A stretch of DNA of 64,000 nucleotides. Source: Flectonema sp. DT1601. Its lineage: Eukaryota. Position numbers and translations under genes: made by a program. Positions 49,153 through 64,000 of this stretch are shown here, piece by piece (positions within the stretch are counted from its first letter, which is position 1; every line of letters begins with the position of its first letter). Location: positions 930,001-994,000 of the forward strand of contig OZ025796.1 in assembly GCA_964019425.1 (NCBI GenBank). The letters run 5' to 3'. The notes beneath the pieces were generated by a model. That model worked only from the letters and a program-made list of their open reading frames with translations. It was not told where the DNA came from and made no database searches.

Positions 49153-51649
49153 TCAGCTCTTCACCGAAACAGCCTGTAGTTCCTTTGGCTTTATAATTGT
49201 ACGAGGTACTGGATACGCCATCTCGTCTTCATCGCTTGATTCGTTCTTCCAGTAAGATATATCAGTCTGTGGTTGTTATTTTCGATTTCAGAGATTATTA
49301 TTTTCAAGTAAGTAAGATATGAAGGTATTCATACCCAGTTCCTTTCTTTTTGCTTCTGCGTATGTTCAGCTGCGTCTCTCTGTTGGATTTGATCATCCCA
49401 GACAGTCTGTAATTTCTTTTGTTCTTGCATTTTCCTCACCATTTGTTTGTGAAGGTTTTTGAATTCCTGTTTTTTTTTTTACGTTTTTTTTTAGGGTGGT
49501 TATTAAAAAGAAGAGAGAGGAACTGTTTGCTGACAATATTACACACCGCCATGCCGCTCTTTTTGAAATGATCATCTCTGCGAGAATCAATAAGCTTCTT
49601 GGTACGACTAGCAGCGTGTTCTTTGATGGTGACCATATTCGATTGTTGAACAGCAAGAGCTCTTTCTTTCTCACGTTTCTTTGCTTCGCGTTCGTTTTCA
49701 AACATTTCACCTCGAGAAGTTGCTTGAAAGAAGAAATCACCCGTATCTTGATTATCTGCTTCCTTCCTTGAGGCTCTAATAGCAGCACTCGTTGAAAGAT
49801 GATTTATGTAATCTTGCCGAATACGTTGTTGATTAGCATAACGGGATTCCTTCTCAACCTGGTCGCTTAATTTCCATGATCGTTGAAGTTGTTCGTTAAC
49901 TTCAGTAGCCTGGTCTTTTTCAAATTCCTTTACGTATTTTGATCTGTCGAGTTTCTCTTGAATTTGAGTTTTTAAGAAATTCAAATCAGGTGGTTCAGGC
50001 TGAAGTAGAGCACGCGATCCAAACAAGTCACCAGGTCCTAATATGTGTTGATCTCTTGTAGTGTTCATTGCCTTCTTATCGCGGACCATCTGAACGTTGA
50101 GTTCGAACATCTTTTGTGCCTGAGCACGAGATTTATAACGAGCTTCCATGTCTTTTTGCTCTTCGCTTGCAATCCAATTGCGGACGACTTGGGCTCTCCT
50201 GGCTTCTTGCACGTCATCAGAACGTTTCTTTTCTAGTTTTGATTGAAGCTGCGCATCCCAGGCGTCCTTGAAAGCTTTATTGCGAGCTCTACGATACCAT
50301 AGTTTAGCTCTTTTTGATCGTTGGTATGCAGTCATAGTACCTTGAGGGGTTGAAGCTGTGGAGAGGGCAGGTGAGTTTCTACCACAACCAGTTTCAATAG
50401 TTTTGAAATAATCTGATGCAGCGACAGGTTCCCCTTTATGTACACTACGATGACAATTACTACTAACATCTGTCTTTGTGTCTTCGGGATGTCGGGCTGG
50501 TGGGATTGGGATTTCAGATTTGTCACTGATGCTGGTTGGTTTAATACTGTGTGCTGGTCGTTTGTTGTTTATGTGTCCTGAAATGGTATTATTAGGTTGA
50601 GATGTGTTTTGATTATTATTTTGAACAGGTGGTGACAACTGCCACTCCGACAGAATTTCACGTATCTCGCGTACATTATCCCTGTCTTCCCTAACATCGA
50701 CAATACTGTTATGACTAGCACGTGAACTACACCTAGAAGAAGGAGGTCTAATGTGATCGTGAAGATCAGGTACTGGTGAATCATTCCTTTGAGATATAAC
50801 ACTACCAGCACTGGTAGGCCTTCTTCCGATATATTTTGGTTTCGTTGACGGAGGTGGTGCAGAAGGAGGCCTCTGCGGCTGCTTTCTTTGATCTCCCTGA
50901 GAAGCTTCTTGTTGTTTTTGTTGTTGTCGTTGAAGTTGTTTTTGTCTTTTAATCCTCAAAGTGTCTTTGTATTCATCAATCTTCTTTACATCCACCACGA
51001 GGTCAGATACTTGAGTTGAACCACCTGTGTAGGTGTCATTACCTTGCCAAATACCAGATTGGATCTGCTTGTTGTTTATTTTCTTTGTCATTTCTTCAAC
51101 TTTATTAGTAAATGATGTGTTCCACACAACTCGATATTTCCTTCCTGAGAATAGAACTTTTGAAAATCCAAAATCGATGCTTAATCGATTTCCTCTATAC
51201 GCCAGCTCTCCAATCTTACGGTGAATATCCTTTAGTGAATTATTAACAACATCTTTACCAACACCGGCCATGGTAGCTACATAGCAGTAATTCAGTATAA
51301 CTGAGACACCACCTTGCTGAGCTGGTGCTTTTTGTTTGCTTGGTCCGAGACAAAACTGTGAAACATAACAAGGCAGGAATATTAAAGTCGGAACCAAGAC
51401 AGTTTTTGTACCCCAAAGCAGGGCTTCAGATGCTATAAACTTTAGAAGGATGTGAGCGAATCCTGGTATAAGGACTCCCTTACGACATAGCAGCTGTGAT
51501 TCGACGTATTCACACAATGTGCTCCATACAAGTTTCAGCACTTCGTAGTCTACTCCCCTGCTAGAACCGGGTCGCATTGCAACCATCTGTAGCACATTAT
51601 CAATAGTCAAATACGGTTGTGGTGATGGAGAGGTTGATGGAGGTGCCAT
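49153..51649 (-). CDS. CCDC81-like protein (HU-like N-terminal domains + coiled coil), three exons: 51649-49547, 49466-49335, 49266-49153
   Basis: VWSTLCEYVESQL..KGVLIPGF and LNY..A...KD.V motifs. Two GT-AG introns (49467-49546, 49267-49334) restore a coiled-coil frame ending at TGA 49153. Confidence 0.72.
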
Positions 51650-51888
51650 TTTTGTGTAAACTGATTGGTAGTAGTTGTATTAAGTACATTAGTATTTCCT
51701 CAGAATCATTCAAACTCGCCTGTAAAATGAGAAAACCGAAAAATTACTATTTTTTTTTAGAAATAGCTTAATTAAGATCAACCACTCGCGGGCAAAAATA
51801 GAAGTCTCGTTGGTTTTTATTTTCGGATTATTGGTATACATCGACATGTTCACGTAAAGAAAGAAAAAGATGAAAAAAAAGAAGGGAC

Positions 51889-51923
<35 letters not shown>

Positions 51924-52220
51924 CAGTTCGACATTTGGCACTCGTTTAGCGGTATGAAAGAAAAAGTAGAAAAAACCAAGAAAAATGAATATCGGTGACT
52001 AAGCACACCATAATTTATATTTTACCTCTAAACACCAAGCAATCTGAATCAAAAAATGCTGAAGAAAGGACGTCATTTTCTGCGACTAAAGTTTTGGTGT
52101 AAAATCACAGATAACGAGCAATAGTGACCCCAAGGCATCTTTTTTGTCATCCTTAATGGACATCAATAGAGATGAATACTTGCAGTATGAGTAATGAATA
52201 ATAATAATAACCAACATGAA

Positions 52221-53255
52221 CTAAGCCCTAGCAGGGATTACCTTGGTGTTCCAGTAGTATGAACGATCACTGAAAACGCTAGCAAGTTGAATTCTTTCTG
52301 CGGCAGTAAGTGATGACTTCAACGCTTCGATATTCTGCTTAATATGATCTGGGTTTCCTGAACGAGGTACAATAGAAACACCCTGTTCTGTTATCCATTT
52401 TAGCAGAGTTGGGCTGTCTGTTTCTGTTTGATGTTCAAAACAAACGTGATGACCATATGCAGTTACAGCAACACCACGTTCACGACACCAATTTATAACA
52501 TCAGTTCTTGGATAGCGAGGATGCATTTCAATTTGATTGACAGCTGGAAGTTCATTTGTGTATTTCAACATCTCCTCCAAATGACTAACTTCATAGTTGC
52601 TTACTCCAACGGCTTTACATTTTCCTTCTTTTTTCAATTCGAGCATGTTCTCCCATGACTTCTTACGGGTTTCATATCCGTGGTCGACACCCAACTTTAG
52701 GAAGACGGTCATGATCGCCATGGAAGCATCGCAAACCCAAAAAGGTACTCTTTTCATTAAACCACCATAGTGAGGTAAGAAAGCAGTCCAAATCTCTGCT
52801 GGTGTCGTTGCAGGGGTATGAATAAGACATAAGTCAACATAGTCAAGACCAAGTTCTTTGAGACTCAGATCTACACCCTTATGTTCTTCTCCTTTGGTGT
52901 TCTCCACGCAGAATGGAAGGTTGGCAGGTTGTCCTAGAAAACATGTTGCGGTTGGGAAGAATCCAACTTTTGTCGTTACGAAGATCTCTTCTCTTGGAAC
53001 ATCAGTCTTGGACAGTGCTTTCCCAACAGGGATGTGGCTATCATATAACAAAGCAGTATCAATTGCTCGATATCCACTCTCTAATGCACTTAGAACTGCA
53101 TCTTCTGACTTCTCTTTCAAAATAGCCGTTCCTAATCCAATCAAGGGAATAGGATGTTCCTTCGCCACTGCTCTTCTCTTATCCTGTGGTAGGTACGATG
53201 CTACACCCGCACCAACACCCGTCGCTAATGCAAATCTGGTTGCAATCGAAAGCAT
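52221..53255 (-). CDS. Aldo-keto reductase
   Basis: IPLIGLGT, GYRAIDTA..Y, REEIFVTTK, DYVDLCLIH, GVSNY, PAVNQIEMHP. Confidence 0.92.
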   Translation of the reverse strand: MLSIATRFALATGVGAGVASYLPQDKRRAVAKEHPIPLIGLGTAILKEKSEDAVLSALESGYRAIDTALLYDSHIPVGKALSKTDVPREEIFVTTKVGFFPTATCFLGQPANLPFCVENTKGEEHKGVDLSLKELGLDYVDLCLIHTPATTPAEIWTAFLPHYGGLMKRVPFWVCDASMAIMTVFLKLGVDHGYETRKKSWENMLELKKEGKCKAVGVSNYEVSHLEEMLKYTNELPAVNQIEMHPRYPRTDVINWCRERGVAVTAYGHHVCFEHQTETDSPTLLKWITEQGVSIVPRSGNPDHIKQNIEALKSSLTAAERIQLASVFSDRSYYWNTKVIPARA

Positions 53256-53524
53256 TTTTTTTTAAAAAAAGTTGAGACTAGTAACAAAATGAGAATATAA
53301 ATATAAAAAAGAAAAAAAACGTCTTTTGGTTTACCCGCCACCTGCCAGCCATATTATTTTTAACAATAAACTCATTTTAACTGTTTTAGAAATTGTGGAT
53401 TCTAAAAAAAAAAAAAAACCAACAAAACATAAGAATACCTCTGAGACTTTAATTTAACTTAATTGCCCACCCCCTTTTTGTAAGTCTAATTACGTTCGTC
53501 AAAAATAGATTTCGATAATACCTT

Positions 53525-54364
53525 CTAAGATGGGAACGCTGTGACAATAATTCTTTGTTCAATACACCAGGTTTTAAAACACTTTCCTGAGTTTCCATAT
53601 TGAAGATTGTACAAGTCGCGTAATTCATCAAAACGAGTAGAGATTGGATCTGAAGCGCCGTATCTCCACAATGCGCATATCTTCGCTGTGAAAGACAGAC
53701 GTAGAAGCGTACAGAATGGGAACCAAGTAGCAAGAAGGTGAGTGATTTCAGACAGTGACATCAAAGCTTTCTGGTAATGTTTCAGATTCCAAGATTCAGC
53801 AGCAGATTCCTGAAGAGTAGCAATACTTTTAGGGAATTCAGGTGATGAAGTGTCTGGTGAAAGACACCGCTCGCATTGACAATTAAAGTCAAAGTGGTAC
53901 TTCAGATACTTCAATCTGGAAGGTAAATCCTCATAAATCACAGGACAGTAACTTAGAGTCAGTTCTTCTCCTTTCATAACAGGAGAAATCGCAGATACAA
54001 TAATAGAATTATCACCTAGGAAGTGATACGTGCAGTTAGGTTGGCAGCTGTGATTCAGTCTACTGGCTTCTTCAAATAAACCATAGTTCTCTGCTCCACT
54101 AGTCTGTGCCCATACACCATCATTGCATATTTCATAACAATTGCCTTGCAGCTTTGCTCGAAATGAGTCCCCTTGCAGTTGGTTTATTTTATTTTTGACT
54201 GTTTCATCAGAGGCTTCTGCCTTCAAGAGCAATGCTTTCCATCCATCTTTGACTGGTCCTACTATGATTGGTTGCTCTTTTAACACTAATTGACCTGCTG
54301 AGTGATTCTCACAAGCGAAAGCGCCAAGTCCCTTGCTGGGGGTATCATTTATTGTGAGTGGCAT
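53525..54364 (-). CDS. SET-domain (SMYD-like) methyltransferase
   Basis: KGLGAFA, SRLNHSCQPNC, GEELTLSY, post-SET FNCQCERC. Confidence 0.88.
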   Translation of the reverse strand: MPLTINDTPSKGLGAFACENHSAGQLVLKEQPIIVGPVKDGWKALLLKAEASDETVKNKINQLQGDSFRAKLQGNCYEICNDGVWAQTSGAENYGLFEEASRLNHSCQPNCTYHFLGDNSIIVSAISPVMKGEELTLSYCPVIYEDLPSRLKYLKYHFDFNCQCERCLSPDTSSPEFPKSIATLQESAAESWNLKHYQKALMSLSEITHLLATWFPFCTLLRLSFTAKICALWRYGASDPISTRFDELRDLYNLQYGNSGKCFKTWCIEQRIIVTAFPS

Positions 54365-55137
54365 TCAAAGTCTCTACCTGCTGAAAGTAATATTTAAGGA
54401 AAGCCAAAGACGATAAGACTGTTGAAAAGATAGTATAATTTCTATATATAGTGGCAGTTGTATACTTTTACCGTAGATTTTGATTGTTATCTCTTATTTT
54501 AGTTATTCGGCTTCAGTCTTCTCATAGAAACATTGACGTGATATCGGATGTCTGTAAAAATAAAAAATGAGATTAACAAGAATGTAACAGAGATTCATTT
54601 GGACTGGAACCGCATTTTCATGAAAAGCGTTTATGGACATCGTGAGTCGAAAAAAAAAAAATCAAAGAAATCAACAATGCTGATGCACTTTAACCTGCAT
54701 CCTCTAGGGAAAGCAGTACTATGAGAGGGAGTTGTTGTTTTTTTTTCCCTTCGGTGCTTATGCAAAATCTTCATATGCACATTAGTGTTTTTATTTTTTT
54801 TTGTTCTTCTTTTAGTTTCTTTGGATTTTTTTTTTTATTATTATTATTTTTTTCTTTTTCATTTTTTTTTTTTCTTTTAGTTTCTTTTCTTTTTCTTTCT
54901 TTCTTCTTTTTTTTTTTTTCTATTTCGTATTCATTTTTTTTTTCTATTTTAACGGCTTGCTCGTGTTACGAATTATCAATAAACAAGATTGTAGCCTTAT
55001 AGAGTCCAGCGTTTAGTATTTTGTATTGCAACGTACAATCGCCATAAGTTTTGTGATGGAAAGGCTATGAGCACGCTTCTAACTAAGATGTGTTCCTTTT
55101 ATTCTTGATTCCCATATGAGGATAATATATTACGAGA

Positions 55138-55168
<31 letters not shown>

Positions 55169-55198
55169 AGCGGAATATTGCTGTGTTGGATTTTTTGA

Positions 55199-55229
<31 letters not shown>

Positions 55230-55468
55230 GTTGTTGCTGGTTCTTTGTTTCCTGGAAAGCTGTATAATAATAGATTGAAAAGTGAATCATCAAAAATATG
55301 TGGGAAGAAACCACTCACATAATTCCTGTTTTTGTTTGCTTAACAAAATAGACAGGACGTTTCGATTTCTCTTTTCTTTTCTTTTAAAATAAAATAAAAT
55401 AAAATAAAATTTCCTCCTTACTTTTTCTATTTTCGAGGAAAAGTTGAGAGAGGGAGTATTTGCAATTA

Positions 55469-55540
55469 GACGAAATGGGTGGAGGAAATGGGTGGGGGGA
55501 AAACGGTGGACGAAATGGGTGGAGGAAATGGTGAGGAAAA
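55469..55540 (+). repeat. G-rich short tandem repeat (GAAATGGGTGGA-like units)
   Basis: gacgaaatgggtggaggaaatgg occurs twice, about six degenerate ~12-13 nt units in all. Confidence 0.75.
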
Positions 55541-56380
55541 TATAAAATTAAAAAAAAAGGAAACAAAAAAAAACTTTATCACTAGTCTGTTTCCTGTTTT
55601 GAAAAATATTATTTTAATTTTTTTTTTTTCTTCTTTTTTGTTGACGCTAGCGGAGAATTCTGCTTGGTGAGAAAACAAAAAAAAATCGAATAGAATATAA
55701 AAAAAAACATTTTTAGTATTTTGGGCGAACCTTCTTTGTGAAATCAACAGCCACTTGGTTAAACGAAAAAAGAAAAAAAGAAAAAAAAACCAAATTTCAT
55801 TGAACTCTGCCCCTCACATTCCTTAACACTTTCGACACCAAGAAGTTTGCAAGATCCGACTTTGGGAACTATAAACCTCCTAGCAGTGCCCTTGCTGCTT
55901 CTGGAACATGGCGGGGGAAAACTTAAGAAGAAAAAGAAAAGAAAAGGTTTACACCCCACAGCTATATACTGTCAACCGTTCATGTTGGAAAAAAAATTAT
56001 AAATCAAGAGTAATTAAACAAGGAATTCTTTGCAAATACGGTAAAAAAAGAGGGAACCGGCCTGAGAACATTTGTGACTCGGCACTTACAACCCGATTAC
56101 CGATGTGCAATGACACGTTGGCATGTGAACAAATTGCAATATTTCTTGGTGTGGGATTACGTTAACGTAATGGAATGAAATTTGCTCCTACTGCGACATT
56201 TTCAATTGGGCTGATGCCCAATACAAATAACTATTCTCGGTTCTGGAATAGAGCATCCACCTTATGTTTAGTTAGTATCATTAATTTTAGAACAGAAAAG
56301 TGAGAATAAGAAAAGTAGAGATCAATAAAAGAAAAGTATTCATTTCTGCAGTTTCCTAACATCAAAGGGTAATAGAATAT

Positions 56381-56448
56381 GTAGTTTCAGGCCTTAATCT
56401 TATACTACTTGTCCCTTTTTAGGCCTTCATCAGTAAGTTCTAAGGGAC
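56381..56448 (-). ncRNA. Hammerhead ribozyme-like motif, downstream copy; predicted cleavage after GUA between 56403 and 56402
   Basis: Minus strand: GUCCCUU AGAA CUUA CUGAUGA AGGCCU AAA AAGGGAC AA GUAGU A UAAG AUUA AGGCCU GAA ACUAC. All core nucleotides are present and stems I, II and III can pair. Confidence 0.7.
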
Positions 56449-56537
56449 TTCATTCTATGTTGAAGTTGCTATCGTTCAAAGATAAAAATCCATCGGAGCT
56501 CGCCAGGATAGGGCTAGCAATGTTTATTTGCTTTTGC

Positions 56538-57287
56538 TCAATTTGAATTTTTGACGTCTGATCGTTTCACTATTACAGTCGAGTTAATGGATGAGTCGTC
56601 ATCCAATTTGCGTTTTACTTTATCTTCGCATATCATCAAAGGTCCTATATTCGCTGGTGTCATCGTAACATCCATATCAGTCTGAGCTTTTAATGGTATC
56701 ATATGGAAACTATGCTCTGTAGTTCGGTACATCTTGTCAAAATGATCGAAAGGGAGTCTTAAATCTTTTGTGCCTTTAAGAATGTCTCGGATGATCATGG
56801 ACTCAAATGAGACTAGCGCAACAATAAAGTGAGTCATCCTTGTTTTCGCTTTATGTAGAATAAGTGCTGCGGCTGCTTCAGGATAATCGAAATCTGCTGG
56901 GTTAACGAAGTACTCGATTCTCCTGTTGAATTTAGTCATGCAAGCCATGTTAAGTACTTGTAGCGAGAACCAACCATCTGGTGATGGTTTATGCTCTGAG
57001 TTGTTCGGTTCTACTTTAAGAGATTCTTCATAAAATCGCTGTTGGTAGTTTTGCAGAAAACTGAAGTTAATTCTATCGATATATAAATGATCTGCAATGA
57101 AGTTGAGCGCTGCCCATCCGCATTCTCCACCGAGAAGACCTTCTCCTGATGTTTGATGTAGGGATGGTGGAAATCGTTTATCCAAGGAATGGCTTGTAGA
57201 GCCTGTGTGGTTAATTGTATCCTTTTCGATGCTTAATGGGACTTTGTGACTAAACTTCTCAAAAGTAAGGTTGATACGTCGACGCAT
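56538..57287 (-). CDS. Josephin/ataxin-3-like papain-fold protease (putative deubiquitinase)
   Basis: HQ..ECGWAALN, DGWFSLQVLNMA (compare ataxin-3 SGFFSIQVI), ALILH, THFIVAL, IIRD give a plausible Cys-His-Asp triad. Confidence 0.55.
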   Translation of the reverse strand: MRRRINLTFEKFSHKVPLSIEKDTINHTGSTSHSLDKRFPPSLHQTSGEGLLGGECGWAALNFIADHLYIDRINFSFLQNYQQRFYEESLKVEPNNSEHKPSPDGWFSLQVLNMACMTKFNRRIEYFVNPADFDYPEAAAALILHKAKTRMTHFIVALVSFESMIIRDILKGTKDLRLPFDHFDKMYRTTEHSFHMIPLKAQTDMDVTMTPANIGPLMICEDKVKRKLDDDSSINSTVIVKRSDVKNSN

Positions 57288-57464
57288 TGCAGCTGCTGTA
57301 TTACCATCATCAATGTGAGAGCTAATGAAGCGGAGGCATGCTGCTCCACCTTATGTTTAGTTAGAATATGAGTTTGTTATAAAAAAGTGCACTAAAATAA
57401 AATATAAAAAAGAAAAGTTATAAAAACACATTGTTCTGCTGTTCCATAATACACTGTGGAATAC

Positions 57465-57530
57465 GTAGTTTCAGGCCTTAATCTTATACTACTTGTCCCT
57501 CTTAGGCCTTCATCAGTAAGTTCTAGGGAC
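57465..57530 (-). ncRNA. Hammerhead ribozyme-like motif, upstream copy; predicted cleavage between 57487 and 57486
   Basis: Minus strand: GUCCCU AGAA CUUA CUGAUGA AGGCCU AAG AGGGAC AA GUAGU A UAAG AUUA AGGCCU GAA ACUAC. Confidence 0.7.
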
Positions 57531-59748
57531 TTCATTCCAGTTAAATAATAAATCGGATCCATCAATTGGTCTATTTCAAAAGAACTGATTATGTTTAGTT
57601 AGTTAGTTAGCAAAATACAAACTGATGACTACGAGGGGTCTGGGTAGCCCGCATCAGTAAGGACCCAATCGCGAAGATTGTAGTTTCATAGTATTGGCTG
57701 GAAGTGATCGACTTCCAGCCTCCACCTTGCCCAGAGGCTAACAGGTTGTAAACAACTAAAGAAAATAAAAAAGAAACGATCTGGGAGTGGGGGGAAGGTG
57801 AAAAAAAATAAAAAATCTTCTTTCTTTCATATACATCTTTCTTTATAATACGACCACATGTGCCATATGCCCACACTCCACGAAAGAAAATAGAAAACCC
57901 CGGAACAGTACCGAGGATCGTTCACCCCCAGTTGTCCAAAGCATTATAAGTGTACTGTGGGCTTACCGAAAAGCTTTAGAAATGTACCACAAAAGATTTA
58001 GGCAGCACATAGCCATATCACTCAGCAAGAAATGAAAACCAAAAGGATCAGGTAAGATGACAGTCAGTTTAAGGTCATAACTGCGCCGGACCTGAGTTTA
58101 AGCAACTCTCTTTGCGAGCATTACTCAAGTACAAAGAAGGCAATGGCGAATCCAAAGCCAAGGAAAGTATTTTTTCTCTTTCTTTTTTTTTTTTTTTCCA
58201 TTTTCTTTTTTATTGCGCATTGGGAAAAAGTTATGAACAAGGGAAAAATTAGTTTTAAGCATATTTATATAAAGACATAAATATATGTATTGTATCAAAG
58301 TTAATTAATTTAAATAATTAGTAATTTGTGATGCAGTGACTAAAGTGAACAAGGGGGAATTAAAAAAGAAAACGAGAGGAAAAACAACAAAGTACGTGTG
58401 AGAAGTTGACCGATTAAATTCTTTTATTTTATTTTATTTTATTTTATTTTTCTCCCCTGGAAAAAAAAAAAAAAAAAAAAAAAAGCGAGAAAAAAGAAGT
58501 CGAAACGCCTAACACTAACAATACACGTACCCAGAATCGTCAGCACCAAGTACAGTAAGGGGTGAGACAGTAGGTGTATGAATAACGAGCTAAAAACAAG
58601 CTGCAAAGGTCCCTAGCCCACAGGAGCTGGTTCCAACCGATGATGAAATGATAAAAAGATTCAAATCAAGAGCGCTGTGTTGCAGCAACGTTCTTTTTTA
58701 TTTTATTTTATTTTTATTTTTATTTTTTTTTTTTTTTTTGCCTGCATAGCTTCGCCTGAAATAGTAATGGAATAGTAATGAAATAGTAAACAAGCTCCCC
58801 AAGGGCTTTAACGTAAGTTTTTTTTTTTTTTTTTTAATAGAATTCAAGAAATCCAAGTTTTCATAAATTACACACAAGACTACATCAACAGTAATGTATT
58901 TCCGTGTTACCTAAAAGGAACCGAACATCTAAGTTAACGATCAGTAAACAATGTACTTGGTAATAATTGAGTTAAATAGGAAAAAATATAAAAAAAAATA
59001 TTTTTGATATTAAAAAAATAAACACAACTAATATATTGTATCATAAGAACCTAAAAGAATAATTTGACCACCTATGGATACCGTGACCATGCTCAACCTA
59101 ACCTTTAAGGTAACTATCAGCTTCGAGAGTAAGCGCCTCTATTCTATAGGAGAGAGGCAGGATAATAGTTTGAGCAAAAATATGTACTGGATCAAAGGGG
59201 AGAGGGAGGAGGGAAAGAACGAAATCTTCCGTATTTAATGTAAAGAAAAAGCACTTGGTGTCCTTGTGAGATGCCACATCAGTTATTGGAAATCTATAAG
59301 TAATATTTCACACAGATGAGATCTGCTTTACCAAATTCTGATCCGCGAACTACGTTGGTAAGTATAGAATTCAAAAGGACAGTTAATATATATCAGAAAT
59401 ATGATTGTCTCCGAGAATGTAACTACCCACTTTACAAAAAAAAAAAAAAAAAAAAAACATGCGAATACGAAAACAAGATCACGAAGATGGCAGGTTGTTT
59501 CCAAACCAAGGGATCTTCAATCTTTGCTCGATAGATAGATAGATAGATAAGGAAGTCCAATACATTGCGTACTGTGCATCGCTGATACAGCAAACTAGGG
59601 AGCATCGGGTTAACTCCCTAGAGCTACGAGGCAACAGCAACGTAATTAGACCCAATCTTATTAGGATTGTTTTATTATAGCTTCGGCTGACGGGGCATAA
59701 TGAACACAGTATGCCTATTGTCAGCTTTCCACCTTGTCCGATTGTTGT

Positions 59749-59906
59749 CGGGTATATTGTGGGTAGTTCGAAAACGTTGCGCTCCAAAATATAACAAGAC
59801 TCTACTCCACCCGCGTCAGGCGCATCTCTTGTCTTAGCCCTAGCATGCTACGTTGGAACATTGTCACCAGCCCGGTGGACCAAGTTGTAATTATTGCCCC
59901 TGGTTT
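59749..59906 (-). mobile_element. Internal 3'-UTR fragment of the CRE-like element
   Basis: Matches 27810-27967 with one substitution; lacks the terminal 131 nt and the tail. Confidence 0.9.
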
Positions 59907-59976
59907 TTTTTAACTCAAGGCGTGTTATAGTATTAGGTGAGAGATAATGGAAAGGAAGAGAAAAGAGAGAGGGTTG

Positions 59977-59977
<1 letters not shown>

Positions 59978-60017
<40 letters not shown>

Positions 60018-60326
60018 CGCCGAAGCGAAGATGCCGGGAAGAAACCACATGCTAGTACAGTTCTTTTACTTTTCTTTGTCTGCTGGAATTCTATCTGAGA
60101 AAACCGGTAGTCTTTAAAATTGTAAGCCAAGTACAAGTTGCCTCCTGACGGGTATATTGTGGGTAGTTCGAAAACGTTGCGCTCCAAAATATAACAAGAC
60201 TCTACTCCACCCGCGTCAGGCGCATCTCTTGTCTTAGCCCTAGCATGCTACGTTGGAACATTGTCACCAGCCCGGTGGACCAAGTTGTAATTATTGCCCC
60301 TGGTTTACTCATCACTCTTCCGTGTG
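59978..60326 (-). mobile_element. 5'-truncated copy of the CRE-like element with a 40-nt poly(A) tail
   Basis: 60018-60326 matches 27679-27987 with one substitution; T40 at 59978-60017 and T8 at 60327-60334. Confidence 0.93.
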
Positions 60327-61308
60327 TTTTTTTTGTTCCATAACGGACAATGAAAAAGAGTAATATTTATCAAAAAGGTGTCATCTACTCAGATAACATA
60401 GAGGAAGAAGCACGGGTCATGACGAACAGGCTGCGAAACACAAGTAAAAACGTCTACGCAGTCCCAAACACAGATACACATTTCTGATTTACTATTGAAA
60501 ATTACTCTAGCAGGAAAGTGCTTGCAATTAATCAACTAAACCACTTAGGTAACGTGTGTCATGCTGCTGGCTGAAATGTGCAAACAAAAAATCGGGGGGT
60601 GGAAAAGAAGGATAAAAAAAAAAAAAGAGAGGAAGAACAGTAATTATACAACACAAACGCAAACGAAAGGTTTACTTCACAGTGGAACAGCAACACATAA
60701 TTTGAAAATAAAAAAATAATAAAAACGTGTAGATGATTAGAGGAAAGCCTCACGACACACCTTTGATGTGAAGAAAAAGAAAACAGAGGGGAAAACAGCA
60801 TTAAAGACGATACTTTCTAGTAAACAGAAGTAACACAGTAAATGATTAAGGTTTGCCTCATGGCATACCTTTGATGTGAGTAGTGCATTAATTTTTAACA
60901 CAGAAAGCCTCGACTCAAAAGAAGTCTCATCACTTTGCAATATAAAAACAAGTGACACTAACTATTTGATCGGGGATCCCAATACCGCAGCAGGAGATTG
61001 GATTTAATCTCAACGCCGTAGTAGTCAGGGTTTGGTCTTTTTGATATGAAATCATTCTTTTCTTAAAAGGGAGGACAAAAATACAAAAAGGATAGGAGGC
61101 GAGAATTCCACCGACCTGGGCAACCTCGCGAATGATGACAGAACATGAAAAGATAAATAGTTAGAAAGATTACATAAAATAATATCTATGACGACGTAAA
61201 CAAAAAGAAAAGGATTGCGAAAGTACCTTAAAACCATACTAAAAAGAACTGCAGTTGGCAATAGGCAACCTATACTTCAAAATATTCTAGTTTAAGATGT
61301 TTAAGCAA

Positions 61309-62766
61309 CTAATTGAGTTCACAGTTTTGTTCTCTTTGAGCCGACTGCGGAACTACGCCAAGCAGTTCCATTGTTTTAAATTTATCAACCATGTTTCCCT
61401 GCGCCAGCGCTTGTTTTCGAAACGTCCCAGTCACGTGAATCAGATGCGCAGAAGCCAGAGTTGTCGTCACATCGGAAGAGATGTGTCGAGGAAATACCCA
61501 ATTTGGAGGACCAATGCAATTGAAATTTATTTCACGCGGTGTGTGTTTCGGGAAGTGAAGTAGTTCCCTAGCTATCTCCTGATCAGTAGTGTGATAAGGA
61601 GCAAAGCCGTCATCTCGAATAGAAGATATTGTTTGAACGTAGTCAGGAATTGGAATCTTGTCCCTCTGCTCCCAATCAGCTTTACGGATCTTTCCGATGA
61701 GGGATTTCCCTCCGTGACAAACTATTTCATAACTTCCGTTAGCGTCATTTCTATTAATGTGGTCCTTACAAACAACTAGAAGTGATTGAATCAGAATACC
61801 AAGAGTCATATTACCTGAGTCAAAACCTGTTATGATCTCACGAGATATGTGTTCTCTCTTTCCTTTATTCTTCAAACCAAATCCTTTTATCCTCTTTCCC
61901 AGTTGCCAAATCCTCAGAGAAACACGTCCAGATAGATGTGGTCGCTGTGTCATCTCTTTCCCTTCTAACTCTTTATTCCACCAAATAAGTTCGTCAGCCC
62001 ATTTCTGTGTGTACTTCATCACGGCAACGTGAGGCATCATAGCCACCACACCTGTATTAGGCCACACTTTAAAACATGGTTCAACTGTTGGTCTCTCACC
62101 ACACATCATGGCTAAATTCGCATTCAATGAAAGGAAGTGTTGCCATGGATTTCGTAGAGCAATAACGTCAGTATCGAGAAGTATGAGAGCGATACCTGTG
62201 TTGGTTAGTTGGTTGTCGTAATAATAACTGAAAATAAGAATAAGAAAACAATTCAAACCTGACTGTAAGATTCGATTCATCATAATAGGTTTACAATGCA
62301 TTACTGATAATGTTAGTTTGTGACCTGTCGATCTCTTTGTAGAAAGCCAAGGGCATATTTGAACTACGTCAGAACAGTCAACATTATTACTTTGACACCA
62401 ACTTGACAATCTATCCCCTTGTGTTCCTATGAAGATTCCAGTTGAAGCTGAGTCGTCATTCGTTGTAGTTATAGATTTTCTGACATTGTACAACCAGCTG
62501 CTCAGCATTCTCTGTGCTCTACAGTTAGCAACTGTGGCTATAATACGTCCGTGTCTTGATGCTGATTTCACTGTTGTGATAAAGTTGTCTTTTGGTCCAA
62601 TAGAATGCGTGATCCTGTTTTGAGAAACATTATTTCCGACAACTCGAATAGACACCAAGAAATTAACATCTTCAACACCAATACTAGGATACGCAGCCCA
62701 TAGTGCTAGTAGTGTCATAATTGGTATCGCGATAAACGTTACCCTCATCAGTCTATCAACAGCCAT
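61309..62766 (-). CDS. Duplicate DxD glycosyltransferase-like gene
   Basis: Identical to 3967-5424 except K->N (61810) and one synonymous change. Confidence 0.65.
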   Translation of the reverse strand: MAVDRLMRVTFIAIPIMTLLALWAAYPSIGVEDVNFLVSIRVVGNNVSQNRITHSIGPKDNFITTVKSASRHGRIIATVANCRAQRMLSSWLYNVRKSITTTNDDSASTGIFIGTQGDRLSSWCQSNNVDCSDVVQICPWLSTKRSTGHKLTLSVMHCKPIMMNRILQSGLNCFLILIFSYYYDNQLTNTGIALILLDTDVIALRNPWQHFLSLNANLAMMCGERPTVEPCFKVWPNTGVVAMMPHVAVMKYTQKWADELIWWNKELEGKEMTQRPHLSGRVSLRIWQLGKRIKGFGLKNKGKREHISREIITGFDSGNMTLGILIQSLLVVCKDHINRNDANGSYEIVCHGGKSLIGKIRKADWEQRDKIPIPDYVQTISSIRDDGFAPYHTTDQEIARELLHFPKHTPREINFNCIGPPNWVFPRHISSDVTTTLASAHLIHVTGTFRKQALAQGNMVDKFKTMELLGVVPQSAQREQNCELN

Positions 62767-63345
62767 GTTGGCAAATAGAAACTGAAGGGAGAAAGATGAA
62801 TCAAAAATAAATTAAATCACAAACTACGACCACATCCATTAAGCATAACTTAGAAGACATCACCGACAGTATTTGAGAAAAAGGATGTTTTAGAAATCCA
62901 ACTTTTTCTCAGTCGGATTCACTGAAGAGAGTTAAGCTCCCCAACCTTCAAAAAGTAAAGGTTTCCTTATTAAGTAGTTTACGATCTCAAGATATAATTC
63001 TTTATCGAATCCAGTGAAGACAAACTAAACGAAAAACTCGCCATACGTCTTCACAACCGTGAGACTCTCACTGGCTAAAAAAAGACATCCGCCGCATAAA
63101 CAAGGCAGACAGTAGTATTCGATATCCTTCAGTGCTCACACAACAACGATCAACTTAAGGGGAAGTGGGATCTATGTACGAAGAGAGTGTGGATTGACGT
63201 CAGTTATGTGACGGCACTGTTATTTTATTTATAAAAACCACGAAGAAGAATACCACCATAAAGAAAATATAAATAAAAAATAGAACAAACAAGGACACGG
63301 TCGTCGACTCAGTGTAAATAACAACCCAACTTTTGAGAGTATTAA

Positions 63346-64000
63346 TTAATCAGTTTTTTGACAGATCTCTTGAACCTCCGCAGCTTCCGGCGATAGATCA
63401 CCGTCACACTCAATTTGAATATCTTCTCCTTCAAGATTGTCAGCAGCAGAATCATCTTTTTGAGATGTCAACTCTACATCAGATTGATGATGTGGAGACG
63501 TTGGTGGTTTCACAACTAAGACCAAATTTAAAGAATCAAAAGGTCGTTCGATCCAAGCATATAGTCCAGCCACAACAAGAAGTAGTGTCGCAAACACACT
63601 AAAGAGAATCGAAGCTCCCGCATGGTAATAGATGAATCCACCTCCAAGAGTACCAATCAATGGACCAACACCCCATGACACACCATTTAGTACTCCCATT
63701 AAGGAGGTGGTCATTCCAGGGGGAGCAAATTCGTTAACAAAAAATACAGCTGCAGACCAGCTAAGACCATAGGCTATACCGTGCATCGATTCTAATAAAA
63801 AAGCCCAATAAGGATGAGTAATAATACTGTAGCCAAAAAAACGCATCGATTGCGCAATGCAACCAACAAAAACCATTGATGCTGGCCCAACTCTTTTCCT
63901 TATCTCAGTTGAGTAAATGAAAACAGGAATTTCACTAGCGATGCCAACCATCGTAGTGAACCCGATGAGTGTTTTTGAAGCTCCCAAATCATCTAAATGA
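63346..64000 (-). CDS. MFS transporter (MFSD6-like), 3' part; 5' part beyond the window
   Basis: Identical to 6004-6658; frame is open to the window edge. Confidence 0.75.
   Translation of the reverse strand, partial: HLDDLGASKTLIGFTTMVGIASEIPVFIYSTEIRKRVGPASMVFVGCIAQSMRFFGYSIITHPYWAFLLESMHGIAYGLSWSAAVFFVNEFAPPGMTTSLMGVLNGVSWGVGPLIGTLGGGFIYYHAGASILFSVFATLLLVVAGLYAWIERPFDSLNLVLVVKPPTSPHHQSDVELTSQKDDSAADNLEGEDIQIECDGDLSPEAAEVQEICQKTD

Follow-up and report, generated by a model that had tools for sequence, protein, structure and literature searches.

Results

Genes and repeats of the locus

The window analysed here is the whole 64,000-nt stretch of Flectonema sp. DT1601 contig OZ025796.1 from position 930,001 to 994,000, and the coordinates below are counted within it. 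Its genes for CCDC81, SET and aldo-keto reductase mark it as eukaryotic. For one host gene, the closest matches come from protist transcriptomes, at 42-55% protein identity, one of them under a label that may denote a diplonemid, and the organism would seem to be a protist that falls outside the green lineage. The host genes at 49436-54364 and 61309-63987 (CCDC81-like, aldo-keto reductase, SET domain and nucleotide-sugar transferase) appear to be intron-poor and separated by long poly-T/A spacers.

On the minus strand, three 5'-truncated tails are stacked as a partial tandem, with junctions at 57590/57589 and 57345/57344. Unit A (57590..58094, its upstream boundary being approximate) is a third repeat that ends in the same terminal motif as the others. 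Unit B (57345..57589) is the 5'-truncated 3' end of a sister subfamily and carries the first of two ribozyme motifs, copy 1. It abuts, at 57345/57344, unit C (56256..57344), a 5'-truncated copy of a Penelope-like element made of the end of an open reading frame (ORF), a 3' UTR with ribozyme copy 2, and the terminal motif. The 3'-terminal motif of unit B (57345..57365, minus strand) is identical at 20 of 21 positions to that of unit C (56256..56276, minus strand); both belong to repeat family D20, and a 15-nt part of the motif is found again at 57589-57603. Furthermore, unit B and the tail of unit C are 77% identical over 207 nt (blastn). Parts of the stretch were also present, as low-depth contigs, in seven of the nine public runs listed, five of which were compared; one run is an RNA library, and the contigs carry no expression, strand or cut-end information. 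Contigs of runs X2, X3 and X4 have loose ends at 57589/57590, and a diverged 709-nt contig of run X6 holds the ORF end and the ribozyme on one piece.

On the 3' side of unit C, contigs of the low-depth run X3 cover 55910-56255 while the neighbouring DNA is uncovered, hinting at a further repeat. A G-rich short tandem repeat, with a period of 13-14 nt and about five copies, lies at 55468-55531.

The ORF belongs to a GIY-YIG/reverse transcriptase element

The 5'-truncated ORF of unit C (56538..57344, minus strand) corresponds to residues 1083-1350 of P0018, a 1350-aa protein with GIY-YIG and reverse transcriptase (RT) regions; in a tblastn comparison, window 57344-56541 was identical to it at 265 of 268 residues (99%). 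The fragment comprises the end of the RT region and the tail, and it is this 99% protein match that links the GIY-YIG end of the element to the ribozyme-bearing UTR. P0018 is part of a cluster of 59 members, and the sister cluster has 24. A translated 249-aa protein was discarded as a candidate because its ATG encodes a Met from the interior of P0018, and a viral or retrozyme origin because the ORF is a fragment of the 59-member RT cluster. As DNA, relatives of the element were absent from the metagenome, viral and prokaryote collections.

P0018 is a single ORF with an N-terminal GIY-YIG endonuclease (EN) motif at residue 237 and the RT at 839-962 with YIDD, and between them lie CxC, GxKF and DKG at residues 560, 596 and 677. 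The region from EN to DK is common to seven of the eight more distant relatives tested. The Pfam GIY-YIG match is weak in P0018 (E 0.15) and in P0022 (E 0.0073), with values down to 3.5e-5 in relatives. Residues 226-340 hold a single cysteine, so that the endonuclease has neither the CCHH nor the CX2-5CxxC finger, and 75 residues, as counted on P0018 alone, separate RT motifs A and B, the interval in which Naiad/Chlamys elements carry an insertion in the fingers domain. An N-terminal GIY-YIG, CxC, GxKF, a DK motif and an RT are the criteria for Naiad/Chlamys elements in the accessible text of Craig et al. (2021; PMC8557442), where an endonuclease without CCHH is given as a Chlamys trait. By these motifs the element would be a Penelope-like element of Naiad/Chlamys type, with a protein nearest to the Chlamys subgroup. 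The closest layout described there, Chlamys-1_cBra, has the same motifs, an endonuclease likewise devoid of CCHH, 5' truncation, partial tandems and a C-terminal extension that may be Josephin-like (PMC8557442).

The resemblance of the ORF tail to Josephin is suggestive at most. The tail had no Josephin match in Pfam and no match in PDB, and BLASTP against a Josephin-bearing relative was not significant; hhalign gave a probability of 2.3%, yet the Cys, the His and their flanking motifs align. Its structure model has a pLDDT of 37.5. Among 19 RT relatives, seven carry a ubiquitin C-terminal hydrolase (USP), one a Josephin and one a calpain-like domain (P0037, P0039, P0040, P0042, P0044, P0050, P0074, P0110 and P0038), which suggests that modules of the cysteine-protease or deubiquitinase kind are exchanged within this RT branch.

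Two permuted hammerhead motifs on the minus strand

A descriptor scan allowing the three hammerhead blocks (core, C; GAAA, G; cleavage site, S) in any order on both strands of the 64-kb window gave exactly two matches, both in the order C-S-G and on the minus strand, 1084 nt apart. A stricter descriptor returned the same two matches, and none when applied to 30 sequences as long as the window drawn from a third-order Markov model; two intact copies against none in 30 shuffles confirm that the motif is real. Searching with the DNA pattern of the core found 34 loci in metagenome contigs, with stems at 0 of the 34, and none in viral contigs; cores alone, therefore, do not bring stems with them.

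Pair-by-pair checking places copy 1 at 57457..57539 (minus strand). An outer helix of 7 bp (57539-57533/57463-57457) surrounds a 6-bp helix that encloses the core strand (57530-57525/57500-57495). The other parts are stem I (57520-57517/57486-57483), the core (57516-57510), stem II (57509-57504/57478-57473) and stem III (57492-57488/57469-57465); GAAA stands at 57472, and the predicted cut falls at 57487/57486, behind the cleavage base 57487 of GUA. Copy 2 (56373..56457, minus strand) is built in the same manner, with an outer helix of 7 bp (56457-56451/56379-56373), an enclosing helix of 7 bp (56448-56442/56417-56411), stem I (56437-56434/56402-56399), the core (56433-56427), stem II (56426-56421/56394-56389), stem III (56408-56404/56385-56381), GAAA at 56388 and a predicted cut at 56403/56402, behind base 56403 of GUA. 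In both copies the conserved core CUGAnGA, GAAA and the UH site each stand beside their own stems, and stems I, II and III have 4, 6 and 5 standard pairs, every one of which was checked singly. The core halves are 37-38 nt apart. The predicted cut of copy 2 lies 135 nt past the ORF stop, and each cut lies 142-147 nt ahead of the 3' end of its own unit.

These results uphold most of the original prediction, which had placed CUGAUGA, GAAA and GUA with pairable stems I-III on the minus strand of both repeats, in a strand order that is not a circular permutation of the hammerhead, and had described a helix around the core strand that gains one base on both of its strands between the copies. The expectation that standard descriptors would miss the motif was also borne out, as an Rfam scan of 50000-64000 gave no hammerhead match at E<=5. 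The outer helix had gone unmentioned, as had the setting of the motif in a retroelement.

Copies differ mainly by compensating changes

The two ribozymes are identical at 79 of 85 alignment columns, as against 82 of 124 positions of the downstream UTR and 27 of 60 of the upstream flank. Four of the six differences make up two compensating changes, namely the replacement of an outer-helix G-C pair by A-U and the gain of a U-A pair in the enclosing helix; the remaining two fall in unpaired linkers. Compensation is thus confined to the enclosing and outer helices; stems I-III are the same in both copies, so that the pair shows no covariation there. A copy in run X6, which shows 43 substitutions and 8 gaps in a 703-nt alignment, departs from copy 1 by two letters and one gap within 67 nt of ribozyme sequence, the same count as copy 2, and if these differences are those of copy 2 the 67-nt stretch is unchanged (rough P 0.017). 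Runs X3 and X6 have a variant in which 2 nt are inserted into the 3' strand of stem II (window 57474 and 56390), for which no compensating change was seen in these two runs.

Unit A contains hammerhead-like pieces of its own at about 57720-57620 (minus strand), in the order G-C-S; a 5-bp helix surrounds their core strand, and a stem III is possible. They have a 10-nt stretch in common with the CSG copies, their core is paired to a downstream complement, and in the copies of runs X2 and X6 the GAAA is displaced to just behind a hairpin. Unit A was rejected as an intact hammerhead, since it breaks down at stem I and at core A9, neither of which is restored by the run variants. The pieces are possibly a decayed or differently wired hammerhead relative.

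Comparison with known permuted hammerheads

The original prediction knew of no described example of such a motif, and here it has to be corrected. Eckert et al. (2023; PMC10085705) treated the hammerhead as three blocks, C, G and S, and named the six orders; their type CSG has the order found here and the same helix around the core strand. In the accessible text of that paper, type CSG comprises two unique sequences, five in total, from soil metagenome DNA, with no association to other ribozymes or to a host element, and its biological relevance is held to be less well supported than that of type SGC. Single-motif transcripts of CSG-1 and CSG-2, of 77-78 nt, cleaved in vitro at the predicted site at 0.004 and 0.026 per min (PMC10085705).

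The window copies share with CSG-1 and CSG-2 the full core, a similar size, a 2-nt linker ahead of stem III and a short linker between stems I and II (PMC10085705). They differ in having unrelated stem sequences, GUA instead of GUC, a stem I of 4 bp instead of 6 bp, an enclosing helix offset by 4- and 3-nt spacers where the published one is flush, and the additional 7-bp outer helix. Furthermore, they sit on a eukaryotic chromosome inside a retroelement, in contrast to soil metagenome sequences with no known element (PMC10085705). The type-SGC HRIMA-1 has another opening point and is described from metatranscriptomic RNAs, not from retroelements (PMC10085705). The fold is consequently already known, and its outer helix and retroelement host are absent from the papers found. 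No link between CSG hammerheads and Penelope-like elements was found in a literature search that had most subscription journals outside its coverage, and the accessible part of a 2026 retrozyme preprint does not mention CSG or SGC.

CSG hammerheads in Naiad tails

According to the accessible text of Craig et al. (PMC8557442), Naiads and most Chlamys have no canonical hammerheads, in contrast to the CSG hammerhead of the window family, whose host also differs in appearing to be a protist outside the green lineage. The same source flags 10 'core' and 8 'half-core' hammerhead cases, the halves of the latter being 35-50 nt apart. We searched the supplement of that paper with four core spellings and examined 136 of 153 places (55/62, 22/23, 22/25 and 37/43), on the printed strand only and with motifs split by a line end being missed. 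On visual inspection, six of these places, in parts 13-16 of the Naiad consensus file, read as complete CSG hammerheads, each with a GUC site. Their enclosing helix and stems I, II and III have 8/6/5/12, 11/6/5/11, 12/5/5/6, 9/5/4/6, 15/6/5/10 and about 10/6/5/10 pairs, the last with one extra base behind the core, and all four helices differ in sequence, by eye, among the six and from the window copies. Two of them stand at extreme record ends, ahead of the headers Naiad-3_Nbra and Naiad_Hcon, and by table order these two records are those of Naiad-2_Nbra ('core') and Naiad-3_Nbra ('half-core'). Judged by file position, the remaining four belong to the nematode block, the last possibly lying just beyond it (PMC8557442). 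In the Chlamys file no CSG fold was seen by eye at the core-spelling places examined on the printed strand. In the cnidarian Naiad tails (supplement parts 10-12) the site comes first, followed by GAAA and then the core (S-G-C), unlike the nematode CSG, and the 5' strand of their stem II has apparently moved upstream (PMC8557442).

Discussion

We propose that each repeat is probably a monomeric type-CSG hammerhead in the 3' tail of a Naiad/Chlamys-type element, predicted from its sequence to cut the element RNA after GUA. The enclosing helix and stem III would each close a hairpin, and kissing of the two hairpin loops through stems I and II would build the usual catalytic core, while the outer helix would clamp both ends into a three-way junction. 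Acting as a monomer, the ribozyme would cut after GUA within read-through transcripts of tandem copies and release unit-length RNAs, each headed by the final ~145 nt of the copy upstream; such a role has been put forward for the hammerheads of other Penelope-like elements (Cervera and de la Pena 2014, PMC4209133). Canonical hammerheads of those elements likewise lie in the terminal repeat region with a proposed function in processing tandem precursor RNA; in the accessible text they are of type I and often minimal and dimeric, whereas the window motif is pseudoknotted, with a full stem III (PMC4209133).

Several features weigh against efficient folding. Stem I is weak, with 4 bp and a duplex energy of about -0.8 kcal/mol. 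In the nested fold of minimum energy the core strand is hidden in pairing; this fold lies 6.0-6.4 kcal/mol below the bare scaffold, a difference that stem II, at -9.1, must offset, with pseudoknot loop costs standing outside the calculation. The first pair of stem II is A-U in the window copies, where hammerheads usually have G-C. The motif could accordingly be a CSG derivative that is slow or inactive here and retained because its folded shape gives the reverse transcriptase a handle or stabilises the RNA. The weak stem I, the competing fold and the stem II insertion in two of the five runs compared all fit with this, as do the low rates of the published CSG ribozymes (PMC10085705) and the suggestion that hammerheads may merely ride on Penelope-like elements (PMC8557442). 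We nevertheless regard it as unlikely, since a handle alone would need no catalytic core and the core bases are all intact in both subfamilies, with flanks down to 45-66% identity.

Of the two folds put forward in the original prediction, the intramolecular kissing pseudoknot is the published one (PMC10085705). The other, a dimer between tandem copies through palindromic stem II strands, was suggested by the presence of the same palindrome in both strands and of two copies 1084 nt apart, and minimal hammerheads of other Penelope-like elements do act as dimers (PMC4209133). Against it, the window motifs depart from the type I order with a short palindromic helix III of the dimeric forms, being CSG with a full 5-bp stem III, and each copy forms a closed unit of its own by means of the enclosing and outer helices. 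Moreover, the palindrome is missing from stem II of the published CSG ribozymes, which cleave as single motifs (PMC10085705), and of the six nematode-block ones (PMC8557442), which makes the dimer unneeded and, in our judgement, quite improbable. The two copies are neighbours because the elements insert as partial tandems, not through mutual need. That short motifs came together by chance in an A/T-rich repeat, as the short stems and low-complexity surroundings might suggest, is scarcely credible given the empty matched random sequences, the compensating changes between copies and the stemless core loci of the metagenome.

The monomeric CSG reading, together with the Naiad tails, leads us to lean towards the view that part of the Naiad/Chlamys clade, ranging from a protist element to the Naiads of nematodes, has type-CSG hammerheads as its native ribozymes, and that the 'missing' hammerheads of this clade are non-circular permutations. 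A retroelement tail is likely to be the first known biological home of the CSG fold. In its accessible parts, the study of Craig et al. (PMC8557442) left the 'core' and 'half-core' cases unexplained, and the window locus and the six Naiad tails of the nematode block connect this loose end with that of the CSG ribozymes without a known host element. If this view is correct, CSG is a high-copy eukaryotic ribozyme and not a metagenomic rarity, and element tails form a natural series of rewired hammerheads, possibly including the decayed G-C-S form of unit A. The window and the Naiad tails supply many natural, divergent predicted CSG ribozymes for kinetic and structural work, and tails that bear them offer a direct test of the role of the hammerhead in Penelope-like transposition.
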